This document shows, piece by piece, positions 1 through 52,725 of a stretch of 64,000 nt of DNA (within the stretch, counting starts at the first letter, position 1; every line of letters starts with the position of its first letter). The translations under genes were made by a program, and so were the position numbers. Location: the IMG/VR virus record IMGVR_UViG_3300032218_003260; one strand, 5' to 3'. The notes beneath the pieces were generated by a model that saw nothing but the letters and a program-made list of their open reading frames with translations, did no database searches and had not been told where the DNA came from. This DNA comes from a virus. Its lineage: Duplodnaviria; Caudoviricetes.

Positions 1-354
1 CTCGTCGACGTCCTTCACAGCGCGGGGCGACACGATCCGGTCAAACATGACGCGGTAGCGCGGGCCACGGATGTAGAAGTTAATCGGGAGCGTCGCAAAC
101 GGGAGCGACACAGCCGCCGGGGAGTCGGGCTCCTTGTCCACAACCTTGACGGGCTTGTCAGTGTCAACCTGACGGTCAAGCTCGTCGTTGGTGATGGTCA
201 GCGGCGGCATGATCCGCCGGTAGAACCCGTCTTCACGCATCTTGGTGCGCGTGAAGTCGTTAACCGCATCAATGGCCTGCTTCTGCATGCCGGGGGTATC
301 AAGCTGCTCAAAGAGCGTTTCGTTGAGCAGTTGGATCTCTTGCTGAGTGGGCAT
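1..354 (-). CDS. Major capsid protein, N-terminal part (runs off the window edge)
   Basis: Manual translation: MPTQQEIQLLNETLFEQLDTPGMQKQAIDAVNDFTRTKMREDGFYRRIMPP...KDVDE. It is open to position 1, has a GGAGG RBS upstream, and lies downstream of the protease/scaffold/decoration genes. Not in the ORF track because there is no stop in the window. Confidence 0.7.
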   Translation of the reverse strand, partial: MPTQQEIQLLNETLFEQLDTPGMQKQAIDAVNDFTRTKMREDGFYRRIMPPLTITNDELDRQVDTDKPVKVVDKEPDSPAAVSLPFATLPINFYIRGPRYRVMFDRIVSPRAVKDVDE

Positions 355-393
355 TTTGGGAACCTCCATGTTCCTGAATTAGTTAGGGATAGG

Positions 394-1026: not shown

Positions 1027-1452
1027 TCAGGTAGTGGGCGGGTTAAGACCAAGGCCCGTAAACAATTTTACGTCGGAAGCCTTGAGGCGACCATCGCGGG
1101 CACCCACATACCCGCTCGTCAGACTGGTTTCCGGGTTATAGCTGGCGGCCTTAGTGGTCACCGGCGTACCCAGACGAGCCATTTCAGCAGCGTTTTTATG
1201 CGCAGCTAATTTGATAACAAGTTCCATCGTGCGCACCGGATCTTGAAGGGCGGTGGCAAGCGCTTCCTTCTGGTGCGACTCGATTCGCTCGTTTTCCACG
1301 CACGCCTTGACGGCTTCGGGGATCAGGTGAGCCAGCTTTTCGCTGGTTTCAACCTGTGCCTTTTCGGCGGCGGCGGCCTTAGTCATCGCGGCATCGGAGT
1401 AACCAATGTAGTCGATGATCTTCTGTACGAGCGCGTTATTTTCGGTAGACAT
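1027..1452 (-). CDS. Head-module hypothetical protein
   Basis: 141 aa helical ORF with GGAGG RBS and KAA motifs, in the head operon. Confidence 0.6.
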   Translation of the reverse strand: MSTENNALVQKIIDYIGYSDAAMTKAAAAEKAQVETSEKLAHLIPEAVKACVENERIESHQKEALATALQDPVRTMELVIKLAAHKNAAEMARLGTPVTTKAASYNPETSLTSGYVGARDGRLKASDVKLFTGLGLNPPTT

Positions 1453-1468: not shown

Positions 1469-2815
1469 TCAACGATTCACAAGTTCGAGAACGTGCTGCT
1501 TCATCATGTCCCGCAACTGGCGCGAACGCTTTGTGCGAGCTTCTTTGACTTGAAACCGACCAGCACGCTTAAAGTTTACAACAGCGCGACCAATGGCGTC
1601 TAAATCTTTAGCAGCCGCCATCTTCGGCTCTTCTGTCGGCATGGCGCCGGCTTCAGGCGCAGCGGCGGCTTCCGGCGGCATACCGCCTTCGGCGCCACCT
1701 GCGTGGCCGCCGTGCGACAGCGCTTGCAGTAAAGCTTCCGGCGGAATGCCGAGTTCTTCAAGCGCCATAGCCAGCTCTTGAACAGCCTCGTCTTCCGACG
1801 GCTCACCGCCGGCGGCTTCAGGAGTCGGGCCACCCTCAGCGCCCATCATGGCTTCAAGACCAGCGGGTGCGCCGCCAGCAGCAGCGTCAGCAGCCGGGGC
1901 ATCGCTCATACCAGACGCAGCGTCTTCCGGCGCGGAATGATCCTCGCCTTCAGCCGCCTCTTCGGTCGGATCGGCGGCGGCGGCCTTGGAGTTTACAAAA
2001 CCAATGAACAGGTCGGCCATTTCGTCGGCTTCGCGGATCGTGTTAGCGCACACTTCGCGAACAGACGCTTCGGCAGCAGCCTTGTCCATACCGAGATGCG
2101 CGGCCAGCTCGTAACCAGCTTTGAACGCGGCAGCTTTGTCGCTGCGAAGCGCGGCAAGATCAGAACCTTCGATCTTGCCGTCGTTGTCGGTGTCGAGTTT
2201 GTGCTGGTCGCCCTTTAGCTCGCCGGTCGATTCGTTTTTTTCTTCAGACTTCTCTTCGGTCTTTTTCTTTAAAAAAGCCGGCATCTCAGCCGCCTTCTCA
2301 TTGTTCAGCTTGCGAGTGCCAAAGTTGATGAGATTGGCAAGAATGTCGTTACCGAGAGCGCCGGCACGATCGCGGGCTTCCTTGAACGTAACCGAGCTGT
2401 ACTTCTCGCCGTCGTTGGCCTTAACCGGCGACGACGTGCCCGGGTCATCTTTATCGCCCTTGAAATCTTTTTCGTTGGAGGGATCTTCGCCAGTGGCCTT
2501 GGCCGAGACGCCGATGTTCGTTTGAACTTCGTCTTGGCGGCCTTCTTGCGACATCTCCGGTGTGTTGTCTACAGCAAGCGCGCCCTGCTGCTTCTTGACG
2601 TCGGCCTCATACTCGCTAGCGCGCGCACCGGTGCTAGCGTTCTGCACGCCGTTGTCAGCACTGGTCGTCGGATGCGAGGAGGCGCCCTGATATCCACCCG
2701 GATCAGCGGGCACGGGACCGGCAGACTTCTCAGCCGCAGTCTTAACAGGACTCTGCGCAATCTCGGCGGCGAGAGCATTAAGTTGATCAAACAGTGAACG
2801 TTGCATCCGTGCCAT
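1469..2815 (-). CDS. Scaffold-like acidic Ala/Glu-rich head protein
   Basis: 448 aa, low complexity, many K-x-A motifs (KTA, KSA, KAA), between the protease and capsid genes. Confidence 0.5.
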   Translation of the reverse strand: MARMQRSLFDQLNALAAEIAQSPVKTAAEKSAGPVPADPGGYQGASSHPTTSADNGVQNASTGARASEYEADVKKQQGALAVDNTPEMSQEGRQDEVQTNIGVSAKATGEDPSNEKDFKGDKDDPGTSSPVKANDGEKYSSVTFKEARDRAGALGNDILANLINFGTRKLNNEKAAEMPAFLKKKTEEKSEEKNESTGELKGDQHKLDTDNDGKIEGSDLAALRSDKAAAFKAGYELAAHLGMDKAAAEASVREVCANTIREADEMADLFIGFVNSKAAAADPTEEAAEGEDHSAPEDAASGMSDAPAADAAAGGAPAGLEAMMGAEGGPTPEAAGGEPSEDEAVQELAMALEELGIPPEALLQALSHGGHAGGAEGGMPPEAAAAPEAGAMPTEEPKMAAAKDLDAIGRAVVNFKRAGRFQVKEARTKRSRQLRDMMKQHVLELVNR

Positions 2816-2858: not shown

Positions 2859-4316
2859 TCATGTGACATAATTTTGCAATACACAGTGGTTTGCTGTCAA
2901 CCAATTGTTTCCGTATTTCTCGCAGATGGCGGCGTAAGCAGCGATCTTATACAACGCGTAATGTTGCGCAAGAGCTGTTTCTGCTTTTCCACTCGCTTGC
3001 TTGTCGGACGGAAACTCAACTGCCCGGGCGTTACGAAGCGCGGCTAAATAAGCACGTTTCTCAACGCTGACGGGTAATACGCTATGTGTGTGTGCTACCT
3101 TTTCAGCCCATACGCGCACGTTTTGCGGCGCCGCATCAGCTGGAAAGTATACATTGTTTTCAAGTAGCGTGACGACATCTGCGTCGCTAGCTAGTTTTGA
3201 AAACACGTTAGGCAGCGCATACGCAACTGCACTAACAAGTGTGGCGTTAGCTGACTTAACTGTCAACGCTAAAAAATCTCGCAGGGGCAAGATTACGCCA
3301 GCGTCGACCAGTCCGCGTAACACCTCCGCCATTTTAACAGATGGCGCGCTATTTGTATCAATAGCCGGTTGTACCGCGTCAGAACTTGCAAGCGCAGTCT
3401 GGGCCCAGTTACCGCCAGCGCCTGCATCCTTTTCCGCCTGCGCTAGCTGGGTTAACGCTTCTAACTGCAACTGAACGCGGGCGGCAGGGGTACGTCCGAG
3501 GTCAAACCCGAGCGGCGCAGTAATACCTAGCTGCTCGGCAAGTTCGGCACCGGAAACGCAACTATTTGAGGCGGCTTTTTGCAGCTGGCCGGATACGTAA
3601 GCAATACGGTCGGCCGGGCGAAACACGTGGCTGATATCAAAAAACGTCGGGTTTGGATTATCGGCGTGCAGGACGTGACCGTCTTCAAGAACCCGACCCA
3701 TATTGTGCTTTAACCCGCCCGCCTTGCAGTGCCCGCCGTTCTCAACCGAGTCGCAATATTCAGCTCTAGTCTTGGCCGAGTTGCCGCAGGACGAGCACTT
3801 GTCGAACGGGATCTTGCAGGCCATCGACACAGCTATTTCTTTGTCGTTGGCCAGCTTTTCCAGCTCTTTGTCAGCAATCAAGCCGCCGTTTCGATCTGCC
3901 GCCTCTTTCGAACCGTTTAAAGCCACGACCAGCTCGATACGTTTCATGGGCTCGTGGTAGGCGCTGGCCTTTACGACGCCGAAACTTTTAGCGGGGTTCT
4001 TGTTGGCGTGGTCGCGGTAGAAGCGGGCAAACTTTTCAAACGTCTGGTGGTAGTTACGGCAGCAGTCGCGGGTAAAGCCGTCGCCGTTGCGGTTTGGGCC
4101 GTAGTCTTCCGTAGCGCCAATCGCAATCATGTGGACAGGCACTTCGTCTTTGGCAAACTTGATGTTTTCAAGCTTGTGCGCAAACTCAGCGCCAGCGCGT
4201 TTGATGAGGTCCTGCTTATCCGCGCCGATAATACCCCGGCTAGATACTTTAATTAGCGCGGCGACGGGCTCGCTAAAGTCTTGAGCGTGCGGCTGAATAA
4301 CCTTGATCATGCTCAT
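2859..4316 (-). CDS. Prohead (maturation) protease
   Basis: 485 aa with N-x-NGDGF, FYRDH and VSMAC (candidate nucleophile Ser), followed by a CSSC...C...HC cluster. Upstream of the scaffold and capsid genes. Confidence 0.65.
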   Translation of the reverse strand: MSMIKVIQPHAQDFSEPVAALIKVSSRGIIGADKQDLIKRAGAEFAHKLENIKFAKDEVPVHMIAIGATEDYGPNRNGDGFTRDCCRNYHQTFEKFARFYRDHANKNPAKSFGVVKASAYHEPMKRIELVVALNGSKEAADRNGGLIADKELEKLANDKEIAVSMACKIPFDKCSSCGNSAKTRAEYCDSVENGGHCKAGGLKHNMGRVLEDGHVLHADNPNPTFFDISHVFRPADRIAYVSGQLQKAASNSCVSGAELAEQLGITAPLGFDLGRTPAARVQLQLEALTQLAQAEKDAGAGGNWAQTALASSDAVQPAIDTNSAPSVKMAEVLRGLVDAGVILPLRDFLALTVKSANATLVSAVAYALPNVFSKLASDADVVTLLENNVYFPADAAPQNVRVWAEKVAHTHSVLPVSVEKRAYLAALRNARAVEFPSDKQASGKAETALAQHYALYKIAAYAAICEKYGNNWLTANHCVLQNYVT

Positions 4317-4318
4317 GT

Positions 4319-5302
4319 TTACTCTCCCGCGGACGAGCCGCCCAAGCTGTTAAGAAGCGCCGGGACACCAAGCGCACCGAGAACCGGCAGACCGATACCA
4401 GCCATCCGACCACCAACACGCGGCATCTTGCGAAATGCCTGCTGTAATTGCGCTGCGGTAAGCTTTTTACCGGCGCCGCCGACGCCAGATTTACCTTCAG
4501 CCGCGATGGCCGCCAACACGTTGGCGACGTCGTCAGAGTTACGGCCCAGCGTGCCGCCGAGGAAGTTACCGCGCGCCGTTCGTGTGGCTGTGTTGACGCG
4601 GCCGGCCACCGACGCCGGCGTTGTCATGCCGGCTGTTTCCAGCGGCAGACTGACGTCGCGCGGTACGTGCTTAGCGCCGCGCAGACGACGGATGCTGTTC
4701 AAAATTGTTTTTGTAAGCGACGGGTCGTGTGTCGCCTCCGGTAGTTTACCGATGTGTTTAGTTAGATTGTTTGTAACTCGCGTTGGCCCGCTGTTTGCGC
4801 GCAATTGCTCGATAGTAGGTTTCAGCTGTTTGGCAGTAGCGTCGCCAGAATCAAGGAAGCGGTCGAGCTTGCCGTACGCATCAAGCGAATTTGCGGCTTG
4901 GTGTCCGCCGTAAGCGCCAGCGCCCACGCCAGCAATGTTTAACAGCGCGCCAGCAGACGAGCCGTCCTGATTCTTAGCTGCGGCAATAGCCGGCGGTGGT
5001 TCAGCGCCAGTTAACAGCATGTTTTTTGCCGCTGTCGCGCCGAGCCCGCCGATGCCGCCCATTAGCGCATAGTCGAGTATAGCGCGCCGTTTTTTCTTGC
5101 CCTGTAGCGCGCCGATGACGCCGCCAGCGCCGGCGCCGATCGCAGCGTTCTGTAGATACGGGTTACTGAGAATCTGCGACAGGTCCGGTTGGTTACCAAG
5201 CAACGACGCGACACTGGCTACCTTTTCCACAGCGGGATCTGGCGTGCGTGTGGCAATCGCGGAAAGACCGCGCGCGAGTTCGTGAATTTCTGTTGTTTGC
5301 AT
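4319..5302 (-). CDS. Gly/Ala-rich putative virion protein with glycine-zipper hydrophobic segments
   Basis: 327 aa; EKVA motif, AAIGAGAGGVIGAL and C-terminal hydrophobic GxxxG segments. Confidence 0.6.
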   Translation of the reverse strand: MQTTEIHELARGLSAIATRTPDPAVEKVASVASLLGNQPDLSQILSNPYLQNAAIGAGAGGVIGALQGKKKRRAILDYALMGGIGGLGATAAKNMLLTGAEPPPAIAAAKNQDGSSAGALLNIAGVGAGAYGGHQAANSLDAYGKLDRFLDSGDATAKQLKPTIEQLRANSGPTRVTNNLTKHIGKLPEATHDPSLTKTILNSIRRLRGAKHVPRDVSLPLETAGMTTPASVAGRVNTATRTARGNFLGGTLGRNSDDVANVLAAIAAEGKSGVGGAGKKLTAAQLQQAFRKMPRVGGRMAGIGLPVLGALGVPALLNSLGGSSAGE

Positions 5303-5304: not shown

Positions 5305-6684
5305 TTACACCAGCCCGCGCGCGTGTATTTGAGATTCAAGATTGTTTTTCAACGCTTCGGCGCGGATCTTCTCCATCTCAACCAGCTGTTTGACGTCAAA
5401 GTCCGCTAACTGACCGGCTTCGAGGCGCTTGCGCAGTAAAGCCTGCATCGCCGCGCCGGAACCCGTAAAGTTTGGCGCGATCTCGGCGATCTGGTTATAG
5501 GCCGAAGCAATTTCATGCGGGTCGTAACCCGAGATGACCGGGTCGTTTAGGATAAGATCGTTTAATACGCCGCGTGATTTAATTTGCTGCAGTTTGTTTT
5601 CATGCTCTGCGTCGGACATGCTCATAAACGCCTTTTGTTTTTGCAGCGCAGGATCGGTCGTTTTCGCTTCGTTTGCTTCCAGTTGGCCCGCAATGCCGCC
5701 CGGACTCATAAGCTTACCGAGATGACCCATCGTTCCGCTGTACGACGTCAGAGGCGGTGTTGTGTCTTGTTTTTTTTTATCTTTAACCGCCGACACCTTA
5801 AGGGCGAGCGGGGCGGTTTTCGGGTCGTGAAGAATGGATCCGGTAACCGGGGTTGGAGCCGCTTTTGGCTCAGCGGCGGGGGGATTTAACGCCGCTAATT
5901 TGCTCGCCGCGTCATTCCGCAGTTCAACCGCTTTGATTACGTTTTCAACCAGCGTCACGACGGGCAGCGCGCCAAAAAAGTTTTCGCTGGTGGCGGCTTG
6001 CTTTGTAAGGTGCGGGTAGACCGCAGCAATCTTGTTTAACGTAGAAACACCGAGATTGCCGAGACGCAGGCCGACTTCACGAACAGCGTCGGGAAACGAC
6101 ATATTGCCGGGCACGCGGAAATACTGCGCCAGCTCTTCCATCGCCGACGCCGCCTTGTGGTGCATTACAGTGGCAAGGCGGCGAATCTCTTCGGCTTCGC
6201 GCTTTGCGGCTTGCTTCTCGCTATAAGCGCGGCGGGCTGCGGAGTGATCATCACGCGGGGCTGGAACGTACTGGGGCGTCGGAAGCACGCTCTTCGCTGC
6301 GGCAGTTTTATTCAAGCTGGCATTGCGCCGATTAATAAACCCTGTTGGCGATACGGCATACTCGGTTGAGATGATGCTTTTGTTTGTTAACTCGGCTGAT
6401 GTTTTAACGTGCTTAGGATACAGCGCGTCCATAACAACGTTTACATTGGCAAGCTGGAAGTCGGCGGCCTTCTCTAGCGTCGTCTCGCCAAGTTCGCGCT
6501 GTTTATTGGTACGACCGGTGTTGTACGCATGCACCATGAGGTTAATATGCCCGGCTGGAATGCCAGCGTCGCTCGCGCTTTTAATAATTGCGTTGTTCGG
6601 GGTAGCGCCTTCGTTGACCAACGTGGCCGCACGCTCAATTGCGCTCAGCAATTTTTGCTCAGCTTCTTTACTTAATGCCCGCAT
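5305..6684 (-). CDS. Putative virion structural protein
   Basis: 459 aa long ORF with KTAA and KQAA motifs, tightly packed in the operon. Confidence 0.6.
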   Translation of the reverse strand: MRALSKEAEQKLLSAIERAATLVNEGATPNNAIIKSASDAGIPAGHINLMVHAYNTGRTNKQRELGETTLEKAADFQLANVNVVMDALYPKHVKTSAELTNKSIISTEYAVSPTGFINRRNASLNKTAAAKSVLPTPQYVPAPRDDHSAARRAYSEKQAAKREAEEIRRLATVMHHKAASAMEELAQYFRVPGNMSFPDAVREVGLRLGNLGVSTLNKIAAVYPHLTKQAATSENFFGALPVVTLVENVIKAVELRNDAASKLAALNPPAAEPKAAPTPVTGSILHDPKTAPLALKVSAVKDKKKQDTTPPLTSYSGTMGHLGKLMSPGGIAGQLEANEAKTTDPALQKQKAFMSMSDAEHENKLQQIKSRGVLNDLILNDPVISGYDPHEIASAYNQIAEIAPNFTGSGAAMQALLRKRLEAGQLADFDVKQLVEMEKIRAEALKNNLESQIHARGLV

Positions 6685-9527: not shown

Positions 9528-11909
9528 TTAAGCGTTTGCGATAGCGCCAAGATCAATATCCTGCGCGGCTTCTTCCGGGTACGGCTCAATCGTCTTCTGC
9601 TTGAGGAACAGAATGACGTCGCCTAGCATTTCAAACGCGTTGCGCAGCGAGTCTTCCAGTTCCGGCATGTCGGCCTTGCCGTAACGTTCGGCAAACCGGT
9701 CACCGTGCCAGTAGAACATGAACAGGATACGGCCGAGCTTATCGAGGCCCTTGGTCAGCTCGCCCATGTACCTATCGACAAGCGAGTCGTCTCGAACGGC
9801 ACGCAACATGGCGCCGACCATCGCGGTGTCGAACACCTCGCGCTGTCCGCTCTGCGCGGCATCAATAACAGAACGAACGTCTTTTTGGTCGAGCAGCGTA
9901 TTCGGGTTGTAAACGCTGCGGTCCGTTTGACTAGCGCTCATGCCCGGCACCTGCATGGCGGTATCAATGCCAAGCTGTGTAGGAACGTTTGTGCCCATGA
10001 TACTTTCGCCGCCCATTACCGGACCCGGATCAGTCGGCGCTGACGGAGCGCCGTTGATCATCATCGGGCCGCCGTACGGGTCGGCGTACTTAACGCGGCA
10101 CTCAAACTTGCGCTTGGCGGCCGCTTGTTTCAAGATCTCGCGGGCAGCCTGCTCGCGGAGGCCGTGGTGTTCCACTAGCGTAACGAGCGCTTTGATCGGG
10201 TTCAGGTTGGCTTCTTTGTTAATCGTTACCGACGAGCCGTTGTGATAAACCGTCAGCGCGGCGGTCTTTTGCATAAGAGCCAGTTGCGCGTCAACAAGGT
10301 TGCCGGGCATCAGGGCCGGCGGATCACTCTCACCACAACCACATGCGTTCTGATCTTCCGCGTTTTCGGCGTCATCTTCGCCTTTGCTCACCTTAAGAAG
10401 CTTGAAACCCTCCGGCACAAAAATGTCGCCCATGCTGGCGCGCAGGCTGGAACCCTTTTTACCGTTAAGGTGAATTCGAACACCGTCGCGGTACTTGTCG
10501 TAGTTCAGCGGGTCGGTATAGCAGCTGCCGCAAACGCTGCCCTTGGGCGGATACTTTGAGTGATCCTCAAGATGCACTTCGTAAATCGTGCTATCTTCGC
10601 TATTGCCGTACTCTTTGATCACGCGAAACGGCGCAGTAGTGTCGTTACGTTTGCTGAGCGCAATGTAACGGGCATCCTTGCTCGGAACGCTGTTGGCTTC
10701 CGGCAGGCTGTCAAACCACTTGTCAAACTCTTCGCCCTCAATGCGCGCCAGCGCAAAGACTTGGTCAGCGCGGGTGTTTAACCAGTTACGCGCGCCATCG
10801 ACGCGCACGACGGTGATGAAGTTTTCACGCTTGACGGCGCCTTGCGGATGTACGGCAACGTAGCAACGCTCGATGTTGCCCGGCTTGACCAGAATCTCGT
10901 ACAGGCCGCTTTCGGTCGGATTAAACAGCTTCTTTTCGACCTGAATGTGATACGGCACCGAGACGTTGTCGCGGTCGCGCTGGTCTTGGATCAGCACGCC
11001 GTCGCGCAGTAACTTCTCCTGATCTTCTTCCGTGTAGCCGTGCGGGGCCTTGGTCTGCACCGTCGCATCATACGTGATGACCTTCAGACCGGCTTGGGCG
11101 GCGGGTTTCTTGGGCGCTTCGGACAGCACGCTGGCTATCTTGGCGCTGGCGGCGAGTTCACGCTTCTTCGCTTCGGCCATCGCTTCCTTGATGATATCTA
11201 AACCATAGAATTCATCGATGGCGGAGGCGATCTGCGGGGCGTGCTTGCACGTGTTAATAAGCGTGCCGATTACTTCACGGCCAGCCTGTTTCAGAAACGT
11301 CTTCAGGTTCAGCGCGTCGCCCATTTCCTTGAACGCCTGCGCGGTATTTAACGTAGCGCTCTTGGCGAGAGCCGGCATCGCAGCCGTCATCATCTCTTTG
11401 AGTGTGGGCTGCGCAGAGCCAAACTTGGCCGGGCTGCGCGAAAGCTGCGTAAAGTCCGGTTGGCGCTGGCCCATGCCCGACAGGTTGCGTTGCACGCCGC
11501 TACCCAGAATGTTGGGCTTGCGGTTGATCAGGTAGTTAATCCAGTTTTCCTTAAGCGGTACGAACATGTCCTGATTTTTGATATACAGGAGTTCGTGGCC
11601 TTTGAGGTCGCCGTTGAGGAAGAACACCGGCGCATACAGCCAGTTAGAGCCAACCTTGAACGCAAAAACACCAACCGCCTTGGTGTTTTCCCGGTTACGG
11701 TCGAGAAGCTGGAAACCAATTTCGTGGTCGAGCAGCTTGGGGGCCGAATCGCGCAGATAGGCGTGGGCCAGATTGCTAAACGACTGCTCGAAGGAGGTGT
11801 CGTCGCCTTTGCCGCCTAGATCGGCATATTTGGTCTGGGTGCGGTCATACGACTGCATTACCTTCAACCAATGCTTAACAGACGACTCTTTCGCTTTTTT
11901 GTTATACAC
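9528..11909 (-). CDS. Large multi-segment structural protein with many K-x-A motifs
   Basis: About 790 aa; probable GTG start 6 nt after GGAGG; KYA, KSA, KIA, KTA, KEA and KQA motifs separate globular blocks. Confidence 0.7.
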   Translation of the reverse strand: MYNKKAKESSVKHWLKVMQSYDRTQTKYADLGGKGDDTSFEQSFSNLAHAYLRDSAPKLLDHEIGFQLLDRNRENTKAVGVFAFKVGSNWLYAPVFFLNGDLKGHELLYIKNQDMFVPLKENWINYLINRKPNILGSGVQRNLSGMGQRQPDFTQLSRSPAKFGSAQPTLKEMMTAAMPALAKSATLNTAQAFKEMGDALNLKTFLKQAGREVIGTLINTCKHAPQIASAIDEFYGLDIIKEAMAEAKKRELAASAKIASVLSEAPKKPAAQAGLKVITYDATVQTKAPHGYTEEDQEKLLRDGVLIQDQRDRDNVSVPYHIQVEKKLFNPTESGLYEILVKPGNIERCYVAVHPQGAVKRENFITVVRVDGARNWLNTRADQVFALARIEGEEFDKWFDSLPEANSVPSKDARYIALSKRNDTTAPFRVIKEYGNSEDSTIYEVHLEDHSKYPPKGSVCGSCYTDPLNYDKYRDGVRIHLNGKKGSSLRASMGDIFVPEGFKLLKVSKGEDDAENAEDQNACGCGESDPPALMPGNLVDAQLALMQKTAALTVYHNGSSVTINKEANLNPIKALVTLVEHHGLREQAAREILKQAAAKRKFECRVKYADPYGGPMMINGAPSAPTDPGPVMGGESIMGTNVPTQLGIDTAMQVPGMSASQTDRSVYNPNTLLDQKDVRSVIDAAQSGQREVFDTAMVGAMLRAVRDDSLVDRYMGELTKGLDKLGRILFMFYWHGDRFAERYGKADMPELEDSLRNAFEMLGDVILFLKQKTIEPYPEEAAQDIDLGAIANA

Positions 11910-11990
11910 GGCCAGCCTCCATGCTGCGCTCAAAATTAGACACAGCATTAATTTACTGCGTCGCGGTCCCTATATCCTACAAAAACAGGT

Positions 11991-39972: not shown

Positions 39973-40222
39973 ATTCGTTGTACTTCACAACCAGATACGT
40001 CCCGAGAAAAGCACCGAGCGCCAACGGGAATACATACAGCGGATTCTTAGAATACGAAAGCACGCCATACGCGCCCAAGCTATACAAAAAAGAACTTACC
40101 ACCGCGGCGTTAATTGGTTGGCGCTTGCCGACGCAAATTACATACATGGCATACAGAATATCAATGACTACGTACGTCACGAAGATCATGCCCGCCGTAG
40201 GCCAGTGAAAATCCTGCCACAT
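39965..40222 (-). CDS. Small multi-pass membrane protein
   Basis: Start MWQDF; three TM helices ending GAFLGTYLVVK. Confidence 0.65.
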   Translation of the reverse strand: MWQDFHWPTAGMIFVTYVVIDILYAMYVICVGKRQPINAAVVSSFLYSLGAYGVLSYSKNPLYVFPLALGAFLGTYLVVKYNECE

Positions 40223-40232
40223 AGTTGTTGCC

Positions 40233-40586
40233 TCACATGACAGTAGACGCGTGTGTGAACTTCTTCTCGTAGTGCGAATAGATCTCAGCAAACGCCACGC
40301 CCCACGCAGCGTCGTGGGCGAGCTTGTTAAACGCAGCGTCGTCCACCGCGGTATCCAGTCGGTGATTCCATGCCCGTGCGTGCGCCCACTCATGGATCAA
40401 AACGTCCATAGCGCGAGATTCATCCAGACTTTTGTCAATCTGAATGTGGAACTTCTTGCCCTGTTTCCAGCAGCGGCCCTCTAGTTTAGATAGCTTTACC
40501 CGCCGCGCACTGACGGGAAAAGCCGCGGGACACTCGTCTTTGAGCATCCGCAGGAGGGCTTGGTAATACTTAAAACGAGCCGCCAT
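40233..40586 (-). CDS. SprT-like HExxH metallopeptidase-fold protein
   Basis: GGAGG RBS then MAARF; VLIHEWAHA...HDAAWG. Confidence 0.65.
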   Translation of the reverse strand: MAARFKYYQALLRMLKDECPAAFPVSARRVKLSKLEGRCWKQGKKFHIQIDKSLDESRAMDVLIHEWAHARAWNHRLDTAVDDAAFNKLAHDAAWGVAFAEIYSHYEKKFTHASTVM

Positions 40587-40703
40587 GCTCAGTCCTCCTG
40601 AAGGGCGTCCTTGCCGCAACAGGGTGATTATACTTGAGCTGGCGGAGTTTGGCGCCGCAGTTTATTTGCGACTCATAAAAAATCTGCAGCGTCGTCGGAA
40701 GTT

Positions 40704-41105
40704 TCAGAGATCGGGGCTTTCGCCCAAAGTTGTGATTTTTGGCGGGGCGGGCGGGCGGGCAGGAGCTGTAGGTCGGGCGGGAACTTGCGGTTTAGGCGGG
40801 AGAGGCGCAGCCGACATTCCAGCACGCCCTAAACCTCCGCGAGAAGCGCCCAATGAATTAAATCGTTGGGTTTGCGCTTGAGCTGCCGTCACCCCTGCCT
40901 GTTGCGATTGCGGAACCGGAACATTCTGGCCCGTAGGCGTCTGTACCCGAACACCATTTACATACTGCCCAGCCGGAAGATTCGCCTTTAAACGCGCATT
41001 CCGAATTCGGGCCTCAATTCCCTCTCGGTCTAACCCCTCGTCATCAATATTGGGGTAAGCATCGAGGGCTTGTTTTATTAACCGACCAAACTCAAATGGA
41101 TTCAC
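40704..41105 (-). CDS. Pro-rich protein with MNPFEFG leader
   Basis: 133 aa; MNPFEFGRLIKQAL. Confidence 0.65.
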   Translation of the reverse strand: MNPFEFGRLIKQALDAYPNIDDEGLDREGIEARIRNARLKANLPAGQYVNGVRVQTPTGQNVPVPQSQQAGVTAAQAQTQRFNSLGASRGGLGRAGMSAAPLPPKPQVPARPTAPARPPAPPKITTLGESPDL

Positions 41106-41197
41106 GATAATTCCTATGTTATTTTAGTCCAAACATGTTCGTGGTTCTGCCGTATGTCTGTTGCGACGCTGGCGGAGTTTGGTGGCAGCGATTTATT

Positions 41198-42757: not shown

Positions 42758-45290
42758 TTTCGTCGTCCAGAATGCTGGCGCTGGGTTGTGGCTTGGCGTC
42801 TGGATATTTTAACAGCCGGCGCTTCTTCTTTGAAAGCGGCTTATTGGGCGGTGTTAATTTGAGCGTTTGAAACACGGCGCTCGCTTTTTCCTGCACTTCT
42901 TTGTCTTCTGTTAATTCTCCGCGCCGCCGCTTGAGATACTTTTGTAACTCTTGCTCCTGATAGGCTTGAAGCATGGTTTTTACTTTGTCAGCCCGAGTGC
43001 GCGAGACTAGCTTTGCTGGGTCAATCGCCCAGTGCTGTAGCGCCCAGCCACGTCTTGGCGTGGGATTAGACATAAACGGGCCGCCATGTCTGGCTTTGAA
43101 GCTTGCCCAGCGCTTGATCTGTCGCGTGTCTTCGTCGGGAATGCGGCGGCCTGAGTTATAGTTCTGGTACCACTCCAGCCAGCCCTTGGGATCATGCTCT
43201 GTCACCCATTCTGGCTTCCATTCGCCCAAGCTAGCTAACCGCGGGCCTTCTTTCTCATAGAGCGATTTGTACACACCCATGCGATGTAACTGGCCCGGTG
43301 TAAAATCAGGTTGGAAATCAGGCAGCTCGGCGGCGGCTCGTTTCAAAAGCGCAGACACAACGCACGTCACCTGACCCGGTTCCGCTTCGGTGACGTGTTT
43401 GTGACAGGAAACCGGAAAAACATCCCCGCGTTGTGCCTGCGCTATTTTGTCTTGCACGTACTTCTGCATCGGCAATTCTTCCAGCGTCGTATGCTCGTAC
43501 GGGTTGCCTAACAGATCAAGTTGTTTGATGGCAGCACGCAGTTTGTAGATTGCCGCATTACCTGCAGGTTCACGTCCCGGTTTCCATTTGGGTTGGGTGC
43601 CAAATTTGTGCTTTTCAACTAAATCGTCGTCAGACCACGTCTTGCCTGTGTCGACGTGAAACCGGCCCATAAGTTTAGCCGTGTCTAAGTCTGGCGTAAC
43701 ATAACTGCCAGCGGCCAATGTTTGTAAATCAGCATTGGGCGAACCATGGTAGAACGTGCGTTGTTCCGCCACTTTCTGCTTGCGATATTTGTCGCCCTCG
43801 TCTTGCAAAATCTTGCGGAAGATCTCGTTGAGCTGTTCTTTCTCGGCCGTGAGGTGTTCAAGTACTTCGTCGCCAGTACGCTCGCGCTGATATCCCATGA
43901 GCTTGCCGATGATGCTCGGATCTTGGCTGGCGCTTAGATATCTTTGGACTTGAACGTTCTTGAGTTCTTCCGGTAAGTCTCTGTGCGAGTCAAAGCGCAG
44001 ACCACGACCGCGAGCTTGCTGGCTGCGCGACTCATGCCAGTGCGGGTCTAGAAGCTGGATGAGACTCGTACCCTTGGTGGACAAGCCTTCAGCGCCAGCC
44101 GGGCCGATGAGTAACGCCCGGAGCTTGCCGGTGTTGTATGCGTCCACGGCAGCTTGGCGCGCCTTTGTGCTAACGCCGCCGTGGAAAAACGCATGCGGGA
44201 TCTTGGCTTTCTCTAGGCCAGCAGCGTAGGGGGCCAAGCCAGAGTCAATAAAGTTGGAATAGATGATGGCTTTCTTGCGTTTGTCTTCGCCCAGCGTCTT
44301 TTGCAGGTTTTGAAACGCCGTCTGTAACTTTGCGCTCTGCTGAAACGCCTTGGCTGGATCTTTGTCAGCGCGAAAAGGCTGTGTACTGAGACTTACTTGA
44401 CGTAAACCAGTGAGGAAGCTGTTTAACTTCGCCAGCTCGTCTTTGGATAGCGGGAACTCTTGGTCCAACTTCCATAAGAACCCCGGCGGAATCTTCGTGC
44501 GAATAGCTTTTTGAATCTTGTCCTGCGCGGGAGACAGGGGCACACGCACGGTTTCTTCGTTAACATTCACGCCTTCAGGAGTCTTGCTCGGCTGGTAATC
44601 CACCTTGCCCTGTAGCAAGCTTCGCAATTCTTTCTCATTCTTCACCACGGGTTTCACACCGGGCTTCACGCCGCGCAGCCAGCCAAATAAGCCCGGTCGC
44701 ACAGTCTTATAGTCGATGTAGCGCTTCTCGAATTCCTCGGGCGTGATCGATTTGTTGTTCAGCATCGACAACAAGTTCGCCAAGTCCGTGGGCGAATTTG
44801 TGATCGGCGAGCCTGTGAGCAGCAGCAGGCGTTTGGCTTGAGCAGCAGCTTCCGCGGCGCCAGCAGAACTCGCGCTCCCCGGATTACGCAGCCTATGCGC
44901 CTCGTCCATGATGAGCGTTTTGGGCGGCGTTTGGAACTTCTTGCCCAAAGCTAATCCCGTGTAGCTCATGATCTCGGGGTTAGAATTCCGCGTGAACTTT
45001 TTGATCTCTTTATCGAAGTTACCGCGCAAGCTCGCCGGAACCACCACGCCATAGTCTTCGTTGTCTTGCTCTTTGGCCGCTTCAGCAGCAGCCAGAGACG
45101 AGAGTGATTTCCCGGAACCCAGCCCGTGATACACAAGCAGTCTGGGATCTGGGCCGGCAATACGGTCGGCAATCCGCTGCTGATGCTCTTGCAGCTGGAT
45201 TTCGGGAAGTAGTTCTGCGACTTTATGCCACAGGCCAGCCGGAAGCGCGGATGTCTTCGGCGCAATGTCGTCGTCGAGAATGCTGTTCAT
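42735..45290 (-). CDS. Multidomain protein: SF2 helicase + ART-like domain + DPxGW domain
   Basis: 851 aa; HGLGSGKS, MDEAH, LTGSP and QQARGRGLRFDSH; then FYHGSP...SYVTP; then DPKGWLEWYQNYNSGRR...RQIKRW. Confidence 0.85.
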   Translation of the reverse strand: MNSILDDDIAPKTSALPAGLWHKVAELLPEIQLQEHQQRIADRIAGPDPRLLVYHGLGSGKSLSSLAAAEAAKEQDNEDYGVVVPASLRGNFDKEIKKFTRNSNPEIMSYTGLALGKKFQTPPKTLIMDEAHRLRNPGSASSAGAAEAAAQAKRLLLLTGSPITNSPTDLANLLSMLNNKSITPEEFEKRYIDYKTVRPGLFGWLRGVKPGVKPVVKNEKELRSLLQGKVDYQPSKTPEGVNVNEETVRVPLSPAQDKIQKAIRTKIPPGFLWKLDQEFPLSKDELAKLNSFLTGLRQVSLSTQPFRADKDPAKAFQQSAKLQTAFQNLQKTLGEDKRKKAIIYSNFIDSGLAPYAAGLEKAKIPHAFFHGGVSTKARQAAVDAYNTGKLRALLIGPAGAEGLSTKGTSLIQLLDPHWHESRSQQARGRGLRFDSHRDLPEELKNVQVQRYLSASQDPSIIGKLMGYQRERTGDEVLEHLTAEKEQLNEIFRKILQDEGDKYRKQKVAEQRTFYHGSPNADLQTLAAGSYVTPDLDTAKLMGRFHVDTGKTWSDDDLVEKHKFGTQPKWKPGREPAGNAAIYKLRAAIKQLDLLGNPYEHTTLEELPMQKYVQDKIAQAQRGDVFPVSCHKHVTEAEPGQVTCVVSALLKRAAAELPDFQPDFTPGQLHRMGVYKSLYEKEGPRLASLGEWKPEWVTEHDPKGWLEWYQNYNSGRRIPDEDTRQIKRWASFKARHGGPFMSNPTPRRGWALQHWAIDPAKLVSRTRADKVKTMLQAYQEQELQKYLKRRRGELTEDKEVQEKASAVFQTLKLTPPNKPLSKKKRRLLKYPDAKPQPSASILDDENAADSSK

Positions 45291-45302: not shown

Positions 45303-46151
45303 CTATTTTGACTCATTTATATCTAAATGGGTCGCCGGCTCTGGACCCGTGGTAGCCTGCGCGGCAAGCGCTAGCTCGTGCTGCTTGATCTGCGATTCTA
45401 CCCAATCCCGGTACATACTCACACGGGTAAAAGCACTGTCGTCGCCATACGTGCCGTCCGGTTTACCGTCGTCGTGGGCCAGAAACGAATTAATTCCGGC
45501 TAATTCGTTGCCGATAAACATTCCGCCGCCAGAATCACCGGGGGCAATCATGAACTCTAGCGGAAACCGGCCGTCTTTGCGGGGGGCGCAGGCGACCACC
45601 GAGAGAAACGCCGCCGAAAGCTTATTCTGTCCGGCGCGGCGTTGGTTGTCTGATTTGGTGGCGCCCGTTGTAAAGTTTCCAGTTGAACCCCAGCCCGCGA
45701 TGGTGACAGCCTGCCCAAGTTCATCTGCTTTTGTGTACAGCGGCACGTAGAAGTTCAGCTTGAAATCATCGTCAACATAACAGAGCGCAATGTCGTGCAG
45801 GCCAACTTTGTTTTCGTTGTAGTCCTTGTGCTGCACCTTGTAGGCCACGTGGTGTTTCTTCTCGCCAACATAAATCACGTCGTCTTTGGAGCCGTTAATA
45901 ACATGCGCCGCGGTCAACGCCCAGTGCGGTCTAATAATGACCGCTGATGCCAGTTGTTCGTGGTTCTTTTCGCACTTCTTGCAGTCGACGTTATTGGTAA
46001 TTCGGACTACAAACGGAAATTGCTTGCCAAATTCGACGTACTTGTCGTCGGGAGTGCTGGGGTCGATCGTGCCGGCCATCGCGGCACGCGATACAGCCAA
46101 GAGAATAATCACGAATCGTAGTAGGCGGGCAAATAGTTCTTGCACGTTCAT
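45303..46151 (-). CDS. Exported trypsin-like (S1) serine protease
   Basis: 282 aa; signal-like N-terminus, LTAAHV, HDIAL and GDSGG. Confidence 0.92.
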   Translation of the reverse strand: MNVQELFARLLRFVIILLAVSRAAMAGTIDPSTPDDKYVEFGKQFPFVVRITNNVDCKKCEKNHEQLASAVIIRPHWALTAAHVINGSKDDVIYVGEKKHHVAYKVQHKDYNENKVGLHDIALCYVDDDFKLNFYVPLYTKADELGQAVTIAGWGSTGNFTTGATKSDNQRRAGQNKLSAAFLSVVACAPRKDGRFPLEFMIAPGDSGGGMFIGNELAGINSFLAHDDGKPDGTYGDDSAFTRVSMYRDWVESQIKQHELALAAQATTGPEPATHLDINESK

Positions 46152-48912: not shown

Positions 48913-51900
48913 TCAGCGGTTAGCGGTATACGCGACGCCCGCACCACCCGCTGCAAGCCCGCCGACCCCGGCTGCGCCATAGCCCACGCGCTTAGCCATT
49001 GGGACCATGGGCGATGCCACGGTCATGCCGTAGCGAATCGCGGGGCCGTACACCATCTTGCTCAGCGTCGGATTCACGCCGGATTCCTGCGGCTTGTACA
49101 CCATGCTGTGATCGGCTGCGTTCATACCTTGTAGCCGCCGGGGCGATAACTGAAACTCAACAGGTGTGCCTTTGAGCGTCCCTTTGATGTTATGCCCATG
49201 ATAGCCGGGGCGCATTAACATCTTGGACCCAGTGATTTGCACACCAGCGTCTGTCAGTTGTTTTGTTAACGAATCAACAGCAGGTTGACCGTAGCCTTGG
49301 CTGGACGAAAGCCGAAAGCCAAGTAAGTCGTTGGTGACTTGATCTGTTCCGTGGCCTGCGATGCTTCCGGGTGTCTTCACGCGGCCGGCATATGTCTGGA
49401 AACCCTGCGGCTTGAACGACGACAAGAACTCGTTGCCAGCCTGCAGGGCTTGATTGCGCTCGGCGTGCAGGATGCCTTCGGGGACAGAATTACCCAGCGT
49501 CGTCATGGGCCCGCGGAACGACTGGCGCGCAGCTGTCATGCCTTTCGACAGCCCTTTGAAACCCAGCCTGCGTCCAAGCCCCATAGCGCCAGAAACTAAC
49601 CCAGCCGACTTTTCTTTCGCGTCGGGCCAGCCGGGTTTGAGCTGGTAGTCATACACAGGCTCGCCGGCCAACAGCTGCTGCTTGGCCAATGTGGGCACAG
49701 CGCCAGCGATCGAACCGTCTGGTTGGGGCTGTAACCGATAGCGTTCTTTCAGCCACTGTTTATGATATTCAGGCGTTTCTTTGGCCAGCCGATCAAACTG
49801 CTGCGTGGCGATAAACGTGTTGATATCATCCGGCGTCATCGTAATCGGGTGCAGCTTTTCGCGCTGTTTTTTCAGGGGCGTGATGCTGTAATGCACACCC
49901 TCTTGTAGCGGCGTTTTATTTTCGCGCTCTGCTAGGTGTTTGCGCAGCCGGTCAAGCACGGCCTGTTGTTTTTTTTTATTACCGGGTAACACAGCGCGGG
50001 CTTCACCAGTGCGGGCGTTGTTATATGCAATCCCGGGATGGTCTAACTCGTCCAAAATAGTATGCAAAGACTTGCGCAGGTTTACGCCTTGTACGTCGCC
50101 GTCAAAGCGATACACGCCGGCTTTTTTATCTGTCACTTGTCTGGCCGCGGCGTCAGCTTTAAACCCGCCCAGCGTCTTCTTGCCGTAGTGCGCGAGCATG
50201 GGCGCAGAAGACGCCAGCATGTATGTGGGCAGGCCAATAAACGCCGATCGGCCGCCCTTGAGCTTCATCTGGCGCATGAGCTTGGCGCCCCGACGAGACG
50301 CATCAAACTCAGACGCTAACATCGGCACTGCGCCGACTGTACCCGCAATCGCCGAGTTCCGAGAGTTAGTCTCGTTGTTTGAAAGCAGCGCGCCGGCCGT
50401 ACCTAATCCCAGCGCCGGCCGACCGATTTGATTACCGCGCATGAGCCATTTGCCGCCCATGTGGTGCCCGATCTCGTGCGCTAACACGCCGGGGTTACTC
50501 ATGCGCGGACTATGGCCAATCGTGGGTTTTGATATCCCCATACCCGGATTTGCCGGTGTATAAAACGCGGGGGTGTTGCGCACACTATCAGCCGCTGAAC
50601 GGCGCATTCTGTACTTGATGTTATTCATGAGATCGCCAAGCCAGTTGCCCGTTGTTTTAGGTGCTATCTTTGGGTCAATCTTGCTGGCAACGTTCAAACT
50701 ATCTGTCACATCTACGCCCTGCCCCTTTGCGTAGTCACTGAGTTGTTGCCACGCTTGCGATGTTTCAAGCGTCGGCACAGCGTTCATTTCTGGGCGCGCA
50801 ACACGGTTCATGTACGCAGTTAATGGCACGCCAATCGCAGCATTTGTCGCCGGCATGCCACCGAGGTACCAGCCCATCGAGTGCCCTAAACCGGGCTTAG
50901 CGGGTTCTTTTTTTTTTGCTTCGATTGCGCTTTTTTTACCAAAACGCGCAGCAAAATCTGCGGGCGATACCGGGCGAATCGAAGGCGGCGCGGCTGTTGT
51001 TGCTGGGGCGGCCGGCGGTGTGGCCGGCGCTGCAGTGGGCGATACAGGGCGCTGCATAACTGGCGAGGGAGCCGGACGAGCTGCCGGGGCTGGGCTTGGT
51101 CGCGGAACAGCAGTTGGAGCCGGCTGCGCAACTGGCGTGGGTCTAGCTTGCTGCGAAACAGGAGCGGGAACCGGACGCGCTGCCGGCCGAGGTGCTGACG
51201 TTACCGCTTGCCCCGCTCCGGTGGCGCGTTGCGTGTCTATTCGCTGGCGCATCAGCTGATAATTTTGCAATTTTTGCCATTCTGGTACGCCGTCGTTCAC
51301 GTTTACAACGTTTTTCATGTAACTACTGAGGTCGGCGCTCGTGGGCCGTGCAGGCATTTTGAACGGTGTGCGCGCAGCTGCCGCAATTGGTTTTTTCGCA
51401 ACTCCGCTGACCGCTTTACCAGCCATGCGACCAATCGAGCTGAGTAAACCGGCCATCTTCTCCCCGCCTACAGAATTGGCTGTCCCAAACGCGGCGTTCC
51501 CTGTGATATCACCCGTCGAAGACAACGCGCCGTATGAATTAATAGGATTGGCGTTGGGAGACGAACCGCCGCCAACAGGGGGTAGTTGGCCAGACGGAGC
51601 AGGCGAGCCCGTGTTTGCTGGCTGGGCGGCGGGAGCCTGTGGTTGGCCTTGTGGCGCCTGTGCCTGCATACCCATAGGGAGCGGCGTACCCATCGCCGGC
51701 ATGGCATATCGCTTAATTCCGGCGTTTGCAGGCATCCGGGCAGCCTCTCGGGCCTCCATTTCAGCCCTTTCATTCTCCATCGCCTGCATAATGGGCTGCG
51801 ACAAAACAGCAGAAAGCTTCGCCATTAACGTGTTTACACCATAATTTGGCTTTGTTTCCGAGTTACATCTTTCGCCCTTGGTTTTAACGACCTTGGGTGG

Positions 51901-52725
51901 ATTTTCGCCTGCAACTGTGGGCTTATCACTGGCCGGCTGCTCGATATAGACCTCTTTGGTGTCCGCTTTCTTGGATAATTTCCTGTAAATATCGAGGGCT
52001 ACAGAGTTTACAGCCGATTGTTTGTAAGTTGTCATGGGAGGTTTATTTGCAAAGGCTGCGTTAATGGGGGATTGGCTTGCGGTACCGGTGACATGGGGCA
52101 AAAACCCGACAACTCCACCAACACCAAGGTTCATGACACCGTTTGCGACTCCGATACCCTTCTCTAATGTCTCGGTAGGGAGTTCGCCATGTTGTTTTAC
52201 ATAGCGCTGCGTCTGATTCTGAAGCTGCTGGACGTCTTTATACGCTCTGGTGGCTTTATTGACGGTACTTTTATTGACGTTGGCGAAAGTCTTGGGGAGT
52301 TTTGAGTTTACAAGCTTATCGGAGAGTTCTAGTTGGCGCGCAGAGAGGACAGCAGCGTTGGGGAGGCGCTTGAGCAGTCTGTATGAGCGCATGGGGTTAA
52401 AAAACAGCACGCTTTCCCTTGCGGCATTCTGAAACAACTGCTGCAACATCGGCGAGCCAACACGTTTTGATAGCATTCCGGCAGCTGCAAGGCCGGCGGT
52501 TGTGCCCAGAGTGCTTAATCCAGCGGCAGCGGCAGTGTCTCGGGCTGCGGCACCGGGAGAAAAGTCGGCTTGCTTGGCCTCTGTGTCAGGTTCTTTGTCT
52601 TTTTTACTGTCAGACGCGTACATGGGGAGTTTCTTTTTGATCGGATACTCGTGCGCCCAGCGTTTGGCAAGCTCTGGATGCTCGGCCCACAGAAACCTAC
52701 GCTGCTTTTCTGACTTAAACGGCAT
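48913..52725 (-). CDS. Polyvalent polyprotein: Zn peptidase, acylphosphatase-like and RelA/SpoT-like synthetase modules
   Basis: 1270 aa; MPFKSEKQRR N-module; HEIGH...EFDAS (aa750-810); DVQGVNLR (aa877-884); GRVKT/DLLGFR/GYHG/VEFQ/DHSMVYK (aa1114-1211); K-x-A sites between modules. Confidence 0.8.
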   Translation of the reverse strand: MPFKSEKQRRFLWAEHPELAKRWAHEYPIKKKLPMYASDSKKDKEPDTEAKQADFSPGAAARDTAAAAGLSTLGTTAGLAAAGMLSKRVGSPMLQQLFQNAARESVLFFNPMRSYRLLKRLPNAAVLSARQLELSDKLVNSKLPKTFANVNKSTVNKATRAYKDVQQLQNQTQRYVKQHGELPTETLEKGIGVANGVMNLGVGGVVGFLPHVTGTASQSPINAAFANKPPMTTYKQSAVNSVALDIYRKLSKKADTKEVYIEQPASDKPTVAGENPPKVVKTKGERCNSETKPNYGVNTLMAKLSAVLSQPIMQAMENERAEMEAREAARMPANAGIKRYAMPAMGTPLPMGMQAQAPQGQPQAPAAQPANTGSPAPSGQLPPVGGGSSPNANPINSYGALSSTGDITGNAAFGTANSVGGEKMAGLLSSIGRMAGKAVSGVAKKPIAAAARTPFKMPARPTSADLSSYMKNVVNVNDGVPEWQKLQNYQLMRQRIDTQRATGAGQAVTSAPRPAARPVPAPVSQQARPTPVAQPAPTAVPRPSPAPAARPAPSPVMQRPVSPTAAPATPPAAPATTAAPPSIRPVSPADFAARFGKKSAIEAKKKEPAKPGLGHSMGWYLGGMPATNAAIGVPLTAYMNRVARPEMNAVPTLETSQAWQQLSDYAKGQGVDVTDSLNVASKIDPKIAPKTTGNWLGDLMNNIKYRMRRSAADSVRNTPAFYTPANPGMGISKPTIGHSPRMSNPGVLAHEIGHHMGGKWLMRGNQIGRPALGLGTAGALLSNNETNSRNSAIAGTVGAVPMLASEFDASRRGAKLMRQMKLKGGRSAFIGLPTYMLASSAPMLAHYGKKTLGGFKADAAARQVTDKKAGVYRFDGDVQGVNLRKSLHTILDELDHPGIAYNNARTGEARAVLPGNKKKQQAVLDRLRKHLAERENKTPLQEGVHYSITPLKKQREKLHPITMTPDDINTFIATQQFDRLAKETPEYHKQWLKERYRLQPQPDGSIAGAVPTLAKQQLLAGEPVYDYQLKPGWPDAKEKSAGLVSGAMGLGRRLGFKGLSKGMTAARQSFRGPMTTLGNSVPEGILHAERNQALQAGNEFLSSFKPQGFQTYAGRVKTPGSIAGHGTDQVTNDLLGFRLSSSQGYGQPAVDSLTKQLTDAGVQITGSKMLMRPGYHGHNIKGTLKGTPVEFQLSPRRLQGMNAADHSMVYKPQESGVNPTLSKMVYGPAIRYGMTVASPMVPMAKRVGYGAAGVGGLAAGGAGVAYTANR

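Follow-up and report, generated by a model that had tools for sequence, protein, structure and literature searches.

Head-maturation proteases that recognise a short motif are known in T4 and in phiKZ-like phages, and their sites are the key to the virion proteins that are processed or injected. T4 gp21 acts at L/I-x-E, and T4 internal proteins and Alt carry a capsid-targeting sequence, a leader that contains Y-Q-E-F. The giant-phage prohead proteases phiKZ gp175, 201phi2-1 and SPN3US gp245 use (S/A/G)-x-E or A-x-E, and herpesvirus assemblin cuts at (V/L)-x-A↓S. The capsid-maturation serine proteases of the gp21/assemblin/HK97 fold make up MEROPS clan SH, with the curated families S77, S78 and U35. 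Here we analyse a stretch of 64,000 nucleotides (nt), hereafter the window, from an uncultivated jumbo phage with a genome of about 200 kb (Caudoviricetes, IMG/VR record IMGVR_UViG_3300032218_003260), in which the tripeptide K-x-A behaves like a selected linear signal, both in proteins of head assembly and where the modules of multi-domain cargo proteins join. Ser or Gly sometimes takes the place of its Ala. We consider it fairly likely that a gp21-fold head-maturation protease of 485 amino acids (aa), encoded in the window, recognises K-x-A, or more fully (L/T)-E-K-x-A with a small residue next.

The signal is clearest in four head-assembly proteins of 141, 448, 459 and 485 aa. In an unbiased scan of every residue pair at spacings 0-3, K-x-A was the top over-represented spaced pair in these four proteins (41 versus 17.6 expected, z 6.1); the pair E-K was also raised, and K-A, K-xx-A and K-xxx-A showed no enrichment there or among the control arrangements below. 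In the cargo set, K-x-G was the second most depleted of 1261 pairs. We also set K-x-[AGS] beside seven other arrangements of the same residues. It occurs 52 times in the head-assembly proteins (control arrangements 16-46) and 22 times in an 806-aa virion-module protein (10-14), against 51 times in cargo or polyvalent proteins (81-97), 40 times in the RNA polymerase (RNAP; 31-39) and 84 times in all other genes (70-93). Seventy curated sites give the consensus (L/T)-E-K-x-A, then A, S or G. A motif ending in Glu is absent as a signal, the consensus reading E-K-x-A and the counts of [AGS]-x-E and [LIV]-x-E being unremarkable in the head-module genes of related phages.

The original prediction had K-x-[AGS] enriched genome-wide. 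This claim fails because, in the 52 likely minus-strand genes that we took as the set for motif counts, the motif is seen 249 times where per-protein shuffles, the source of all expected counts that follow, give 266 (z -1.3); K-x-A alone is seen 136 times (119 expected). Its occurrence in more than 15 open reading frames (ORFs) is real, but composition alone would give such a spread. The tripeptide is also present, at chance level, in PhoH and dCMP deaminase, which had been set apart as not using it at domain boundaries. Individual proteins deviate in both directions: counts are raised in the 141-, 485-, 459- and 806-aa proteins, and lowered in those of 1270 aa (15 versus 25.6), 671 aa (3 versus 13.6) and 851 aa (11 versus 17.1).

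Close relatives were found on 27 IMG/VR contigs (60-96% identity in the 448-aa protein). The only cultured relatives, Salmonella phage Arash and Vibrio phages D69, D148 and D181, are distant ones, their RNAP being about 31% and their protease domain about 37% identical. Among the 52 sites of the four head-assembly proteins, 35 are invariant in all of some 25 relatives, compared with 41 of 162 same-residue control pairs (Fisher p 1e-7), and the middle residue is free to change at conserved sites. In the scaffold-like proteins the motif thus exceeds same-residue controls in both number and conservation. We looked for excess site retention in the relatives' alignments of the RNAP and the remaining genes and saw none. 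Persistence is deep in the protease: K23, K39, K95, K247 and K439 recur across 102 homologs at 38-53% identity, K439 being kept in 70% of them within a region only 22% identical. The genes adjoining the protease are again enriched in K-x-A in L134 (41% protease identity), in Arash and in Vibrio phage D69.

The protease gene sits within the head module beside the scaffold and capsid genes, and the order of the genes for the 459-, 327-, 485-, 448-, 141- and 192-aa proteins and the capsid is kept in the 27 IMG/VR relatives, L134, Arash and Vibrio phage D69. The sites of the 448-aa scaffold-like protein have a mean retention of 0.95 in the 27 relatives, with 10 of 13 kept in all of them; at site 25 the middle residue varies (KTA, KSA, KVA, KAA). 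This protein has no match in Pfam or PHROG, nor in cultured phages by tblastn. In the 459-aa scaffold-like protein, retention is 0.85, versus 0.44 for the reversed pattern, and sites 126, 218 and 296 are kept with at least four different middle residues amid poorly conserved surroundings. The 327-aa protein has two sites, of which the N-terminal one, K27-V-A, is kept in 10 of 10 homologs and the other is not. The capsid protein, cut by the edge of the window, does carry the predicted QKQAI in its N-terminus; it is 308-313 aa long in relatives (the full gene is L002:12445-13386), its K-Q-A is K-N-A in L134 and K-E-A in Arash and Vibrio phage D69, and the site lies about 12 residues ahead of a conserved R-E-x-G-F-x-R-[RK]-I block. 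In the 806-aa protein, conserved sites with a variable middle residue cluster in the first 270 or so residues; K40, K196, K220, K254 and K270 each occur in 92-100% of the relatives, where three or four different residues take the middle position. The annotated start of this ORF is probably 30 codons too early, the true start being Met31, because both the Atlas record and the conservation pattern begin there. The Atlas gave no lead to the identity of the protein.

The 485-aa protein had been proposed as the protease, and its predicted structure supports this. AF2 modelling depended on alignment depth: 12 close relatives gave a predicted local distance difference test score (pLDDT) of 35.8, unusable, and 103 sequences gave 89.5, residues 238-251 being the sole stretch below 50. 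The N-domain aligns with T4 gp21 (5jbl) over 151 of 165 residues (VIA-align, Z 11.3, root-mean-square deviation 3.3; Foldseek probability for the fold match 1.0); the next matches are the varicella-zoster virus protease (Z 6.5) and the human cytomegalovirus protease (Z 4.9). His103, Ser164 and four Cys are invariant in the 103 sequences, His103 and Ser164 being the putative catalytic pair. The Cys, C174, C177, C188 and C197, lie in a stretch with little regular secondary structure in the model (residues 174-197, nt 3723-3797); this insertion is probably zinc-binding. By sequence the protein matches no Pfam family at E<=0.01, its sole PHROG match has no assigned function, and sequence and profile searches against the PDB returned nothing useful. 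Since no curated protease family matches by sequence, we place it outside S77 and S78, in a sequence family of its own that is new within the gp21/assemblin fold. The family is large, with 2614 representative proteins (50%-identity clusters) at E<=0.001. Many homologs (P0002, P0006, P0055 and about 25 others, 600-1300 aa long) contain inteins with Hint, Intein_splicing and LAGLIDADG domains, inserted directly after His103, at about residues 69-73, or at about residues 165-185 beside Ser164. A predicted complex of the N-domain with the first 50 residues of a 210-aa leader-bearing protein (see below) scored 0.01, a value obtained without controls that weighs neither way.

Do the sites mark boundaries in the long cargo proteins? 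Domain labels were left aside here, and we used the positions where homology to seven related genomes breaks off. In seven proteins, 12 of 24 breakpoint clusters lie at most 4 residues from a K-x-[AGS], where 3.2 were expected, and none of 5000 randomisations scored as high; eleven control motifs were weaker, the best being K-x-x-[AGS] (p ~0.05). The placement of sites at domain boundaries in the 481-, 851- and 1270-aa proteins, as originally suggested, is in this way borne out. The domain names given to these proteins fared unevenly: Pfam confirms 2H-SAK, DUF5661 and the SNF2 helicase, but the acylphosphatase falls below the Pfam threshold, and the ART-like and RelA/SpoT-like assignments are weak leads, found by Pfam in none of the separated modules and scored 0.83-0.84 by the Atlas, values to be read as leads only.

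Each of the three proteins shows modules coming and going between sites. In the 481-aa protein, the two Pfam domains (residues 95-182 and 246-289) are each flanked by sites, and residues 292-366 form an extra module between K-G-A and K-A-A; this module is missing in the related genomes G003 and G005, which have a single K-x-G instead, and Gb has a different module after K-G-A. In the 851-aa protein, a 141-residue cassette, for which ART-like is a lead only, follows the helicase module. Five relatives lack it and pass from the helicase through one K-x-[SG] directly to a module with A-E-L-P-D-F. Such a cassette between two sites suggests a route by which effector modules are exchanged. Six related contigs encode shorter homologs of the 1270-aa protein, 346-772 aa in length. 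These have the modules at 1-50 and 235-425 in common, differ in the downstream modules, and become unrelated immediately past a conserved E-K-x-[AGS]. Relatives without its HEIGH zincin module still have the junction motifs. Six relatives of this protein (L112-L115, L111 and L029) carry a Cys-rich module (P-A-W-Q-R-S...C-S-R-M-C-G-M...W-N-C-K-C-S-S) that is missing from the window protein; in every case its end reads Y-E-F-G-K-x-[AS], or nearly so. Separately, the first 27 residues of the 1270-aa protein (nt 52645-52725; M-P-F-K-S-E-K-Q-R-R-F-L-W-A) recur in IMG/VR, where at least 490 stretches match them at 60-80% identity, most lying on unrelated small contigs; judged by sequence, they are a widespread portable module.

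The motif also closes a leader. The members of a small family of Gly/Ala-rich proteins (35148-42757) open with M-x-[AP]-[YF]-[ED]-F-G-x3-G-x2-3-[ED]-K-x-[AG]. Of 20 distinct leaders, 19 have the Lys at residue 15 or 16, and the sequences part directly past the small residue. Related genomes have one to four adjacent paralogs with the leader, always on the coding strand and mostly in the same region, and relatives of the 1270-aa protein have an internal module that is likewise closed by Y-E-F-G-K-x-A. For the protein at 38208-38951, the true start is probably Met20 (nt 38894). In the 519-aa protein, homology breaks at residues 62, 208-216 and 325, and a K-x-[AS] past a Q-Q-F-G-M-Q stretch is kept in six relatives. 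A strongly conserved [KQ]-Y-[VLI]-E-F-G-K in a 282-aa trypsin-family protein encoded in the window recalls the Y-E-F-G leader, although Phe, not a small residue, comes next.

That enzymes are packaged in the head, as had been proposed, finds a parallel in virion mass spectrometry of Arash, which is a distant relative only. There, the RNAP orthologs are the most abundant proteins. Gp217 (1148 spectra in a preparation that lists 116 proteins and may hold contaminants) is the ortholog of the helicase module of the 851-aa protein (34% identity, E 2e-79), and matches its residues 28-499, the stretch between K23-V-A and K506-V-A. Trimming of the RNAP N-terminus at K-S-S was also considered and rejected, the site not being kept in relatives.

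Taken together, sites are kept and multiplied in the scaffold and the protease, kept at joints and leaders and removed elsewhere, a pattern that selection on a protease motif predicts. Maturation could then proceed as follows. The protease would be built into the prohead with the scaffold-like 448-, 459- and 141-aa proteins, and would cut these and its own C-terminal half at many sites, allowing them to leave the head. About 30 residues would be trimmed off the capsid protein, together with part of the N-terminus of the 806-aa protein, and the 17-residue leader (M-x-x-Y-E-F-G...E-K-x-A) would be removed from the small family of Gly/Ala-rich internal proteins. Polyvalent proteins would be cut at their module joints, and the helicase, 2H, ART-like and other modules would be carried, and later delivered, separately. 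By analogy with assemblin, our guess is that the scissile bond follows the small residue. A further idea, which we put forward tentatively, is that the K-x-A joint with Y-E-F-G is a portable 'cut-here' boundary for swapping effector modules (possibly the helicase, ART-like, 2H, alarmone-synthetase-like and peptidase modules) in head-packaged polyproteins that the capsid-maturation protease dissects.

Several observations weigh against cleavage by the gp21-fold protease. We infer cleavage, the responsible enzyme and packaging from the fold and from motif statistics, conservation and placement. K-x-[AGS] is not enriched over all genes, the relatives are kin to each other, so that conservation counts are non-independent events, and the cargo depletion (Poisson p 9e-6) concerns a class picked after the per-protein z-scores had been seen, although it stays at 48 versus 75.6 (p 5e-4) without the 671-aa protein. 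Might the pattern then have no function, being the product of Lys/Ala-rich composition, shared ancestry and BLAST alignments ending at low-complexity linkers? The proteins are indeed Ala-rich (15-18%), and the relatives' 60-96% identity and the lack of an all-gene excess would suit this view. However, reversed and shifted controls made of the same residues show no enrichment, no conservation and no placement at breakpoints; Lys and Ala stay while the residue between them varies; and the signal holds at 38-53% identity and in Arash and Vibrio phage D69. We consider a functionless pattern very unlikely. It is also unlikely, if less so, that K-x-A is selected and left uncut. It could in that case recruit proteins to the scaffold or prohead by docking or targeting, or serve at module ends as a favoured linker or helix cap. 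A packaging signal would equally account for the leader and junction positions, and several conserved sites of the protease N-domain lie inside helices and strands of the AF2 model, where they may be conserved for structural reasons. Tryptic coverage of the scaffold-like Gp221 and Gp223 of Arash is 100%, with no sign of their removal; peptides spanning K-x-A therefore exist uncut in that preparation, and either cutting after Ala is incomplete, or the cut falls after Lys, or precursors are present in the preparation. However, 13 conserved copies in one scaffold-like protein together with depletion elsewhere in cargo form the pattern of a protease site and not of a docking signal, a spacing of i/i+2 does not correspond to a helical repeat, and the neighbouring spacings are not enriched. 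The tripeptide alone must be insufficient for cleavage, and context must matter, because so many N-domain sites are in helices or strands and because the two RNAP proteins, whose orthologs are abundant in the Arash virion, hold their 40 sites without depletion.

The window also codes for other peptidases, and the motif could be cut by one of these: the 282-aa trypsin-family protein acting after Lys, the HEIGH zincin in the 1270-aa protein, or else a host protease. The trypsin-family gene is placed among the cargo genes, and a Lys at P1 would suit an S1 protease as well as the full tryptic coverage in Arash. However, the protein has a signal-peptide-like N-terminus and no acidic residue six positions ahead of its catalytic Ser, the canonical S1 position, and its gene is absent from Arash and has an in-frame stop in G005, while the motif features persist in Arash and L134. 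For the zincin, autoproteolysis by an embedded metallopeptidase has been predicted in polyvalent proteins (Iyer et al. 2017; PMC5512222), but the junction motifs remain in 1270-aa homologs that lack this module. The motif is densest in the gp21-fold protease itself and in the proteins flanking it, and we regard another enzyme as quite unlikely, preferring the gp21-fold protease as the enzyme that would cut at K-x-A.

Table 1. Features discussed in the text (aa and residue numbers refer to the encoded proteins; expected counts from per-protein shuffles)
Feature	Position (nt)	Strand	Remarks
Major capsid protein, N-terminal part	1-369	-	K-Q-A at 274-282
141-aa head-module protein	1027-1452	-	7 sites (2.9 expected); retention 0.94
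448-aa Ala-rich scaffold-like protein	1469-2815	-	13 K-x-[AGS] sites
485-aa candidate head-maturation protease	2859-4316	-	19 K-x-[AGS] sites (9.1 expected, z 4.1)
Protease N-domain, residues 1-237	3606-4316	-	
Protease His103	4008-4010	-	
Protease Ser164	3825-3827	-	
Protease disordered linker, residues 238-251		-	K247-A-A at 3570-3578
Protease helical C-domain		-	more conserved sites, e.g. K439 at 2994-3002
327-aa Gly/Ala-rich protein	4319-5302	-	N-terminal site K27-V-A at 5216-5224
459-aa scaffold-like protein	5305-6684	-	13 sites; K-x-A 11 (5.2 expected)
806-aa virion-module protein	9528-11948	-	22 sites (13.5 expected)
Separate beta' C-terminal RNAP part, 626 aa	11991-13871	-	
Beta-beta' fused RNAP (beta-beta'N), 1467 aa	14851-19254	-	
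275-aa protein	23534-24361	-	peptidoglycan-binding and matrixin (M10) metallopeptidase domains
481-aa protein	26516-27961	-	Pfam 2H-SAK and DUF5661
Sites of 481-aa protein		-	K38 at 27842-27850; K217 at 27305-27313; K289 at 27089-27097; K369 at 26849-26857
Volactin, 344 aa	29416-30450	-	Pfam Volactin full length, E 2e-62; 89-97% identity in six relatives
753-aa Gly/Ala-rich protein (35148-37409), 17-residue leader	37359-37409	-	
753-aa protein, internal joint K491-E-A	35931-35939	-	homology breakpoint exactly at residue 493
210-aa protein (37557-38189), leader	38139-38189	-	
Protein 38208-38951, leader	38841-38894	-	
HNH endonuclease	39476-39850	-	among leader-bearing cargo genes
SprT-like metallopeptidase-motif protein	40233-40619	-	among leader-bearing cargo genes
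133-aa protein (40704-41105), shorter leader	41067-41105	-	M-N-P-F-E-F-G...K-Q-A
519-aa protein	41198-42757	-	leader-like Met43 to K-Q-A, 42572-42631
Joints of 519-aa protein		-	K210-E-A at 42122-42130; K318-Q-S at 41798-41806
851-aa protein	42735-45290	-	Pfam SNF2-type helicase domains
Sites of 851-aa protein		-	K23-V-A at 45216-45224; K506-V-A at 43767-43775; K650-R-A at 43335-43343
851-aa protein, extra 141-residue module, residues 509-649	43344-43766	-	between K506-V-A and K650-R-A
282-aa trypsin-family protease	45303-46151	-	signal-peptide-like N-terminus; Pfam Trypsin E 2.9e-20
1270-aa modular protein	48913-52725	-	
Joints of 1270-aa protein, first half		-	K51-Q-A at 52567-52575; K235-Q-S at 52015-52023; K423-M-A at 51451-51459
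Joints of 1270-aa protein, second half		-	K598-S-A at 50926-50934; K867/868 at 50116-50127; K1039-S-A at 49603-49611

Nearly all genes of the window are on the minus strand. Besides the proteins already named, it codes for PhoH, dCMP deaminase, a methyltransferase, ferritin-like and 2OG-oxygenase proteins, an actin homolog of the Volactin type, several peptidases and four tRNAs. The RNAP is split across 11991-19254 on the minus strand, into a beta-beta'N fusion and a beta'C part; in L134 the beta'C gene contains an intein and a homing endonuclease. The 344-aa protein is a phage actin-family protein, as its full-length Pfam Volactin match indicates, and the 275-aa protein with peptidoglycan-binding and matrixin domains is probably a cell-wall enzyme. 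Twelve of the 27 relative contigs are about 194-205 kb long; five of those examined are 97-100% complete by CheckV, three of them with terminal repeats. Membership of the window in the published 'moraphage' lineage was considered, and it clearly does not belong there.

How does this system compare with those already described? The likeness to T4 lies in the gp21 fold (Z 11.3), the head-module location, a short motif that recurs in scaffold and core proteins, and a putative counterpart of the T4 leader, about 10-17 residues at the start of internal proteins that stop at the motif. The differences are a Lys and a small residue in place of Glu at P1, a 485-aa enzyme with a Cys4 insertion and a helical C-domain that matches no Pfam or PHROG protease family, and the use of the motif between the domains of long multi-enzyme proteins. 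Assemblin belongs to the same fold clan and has a small P1 residue followed by a small residue, as we propose here; however, this parallel in specificity is an analogy only, since assemblin comes from eukaryotic viruses, has a Ser-His-His triad and has no Lys at P3. What is new here is the proposed specificity for Lys and a small residue, to our knowledge unreported for any prohead protease, together with its use at the joints of polyvalent proteins. If K-x-A is a head-protease site, it would provide a rule to predict which proteins the mature virion contains and ejects across a very large phage group, nearly all of it uncultivated. The portable boundary suggested above would, if real, amount to a polyprotein strategy for injected effectors in a double-stranded DNA phage.

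Among giant phages, SPN3US gp245 cuts after A-x-E, removing N-terminal propeptides by multiple cuts as well as its own C-terminal propeptide (PMC10052503). Our proposal resembles the phiKZ and SPN3US systems in the many head and ejection proteins that would be processed, in multiple propeptide cuts and in removal of the C-terminal part of the protease, and in a virion-packaged multisubunit RNAP, as seen in the cultured relative Arash. However, the phage lineage, the RNAP architecture (a beta-beta' fusion here) and the motif differ, and nearly all SPN3US cuts remove N-terminal propeptides, whereas here sites also stand between modules. The multi-domain proteins of the window resemble the polyvalent proteins of Iyer, Burroughs, Anand, de Souza and Aravind (2017), long strings of unrelated effector domains (SNF2 helicase, 2H 'Swiss Army Knife', ART-like, zincin) whose architecture likewise varies among close relatives; of this repertoire, Pfam recognises 2H-SAK together with DUF5661 in the protein of 481 aa, and the SNF2 helicase in that of 851 aa. 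Packaging of polyvalent proteins in the capsid was predicted, as was their self-processing, with no cleavage motif named (PMC5512222). Here, by contrast, one linear motif, common with the head-assembly proteins, marks every joint, also in relatives without the zincin module. If our reading is true, polyvalent domains would be freed at conserved joints by the capsid protease, instead of or beside an embedded peptidase.

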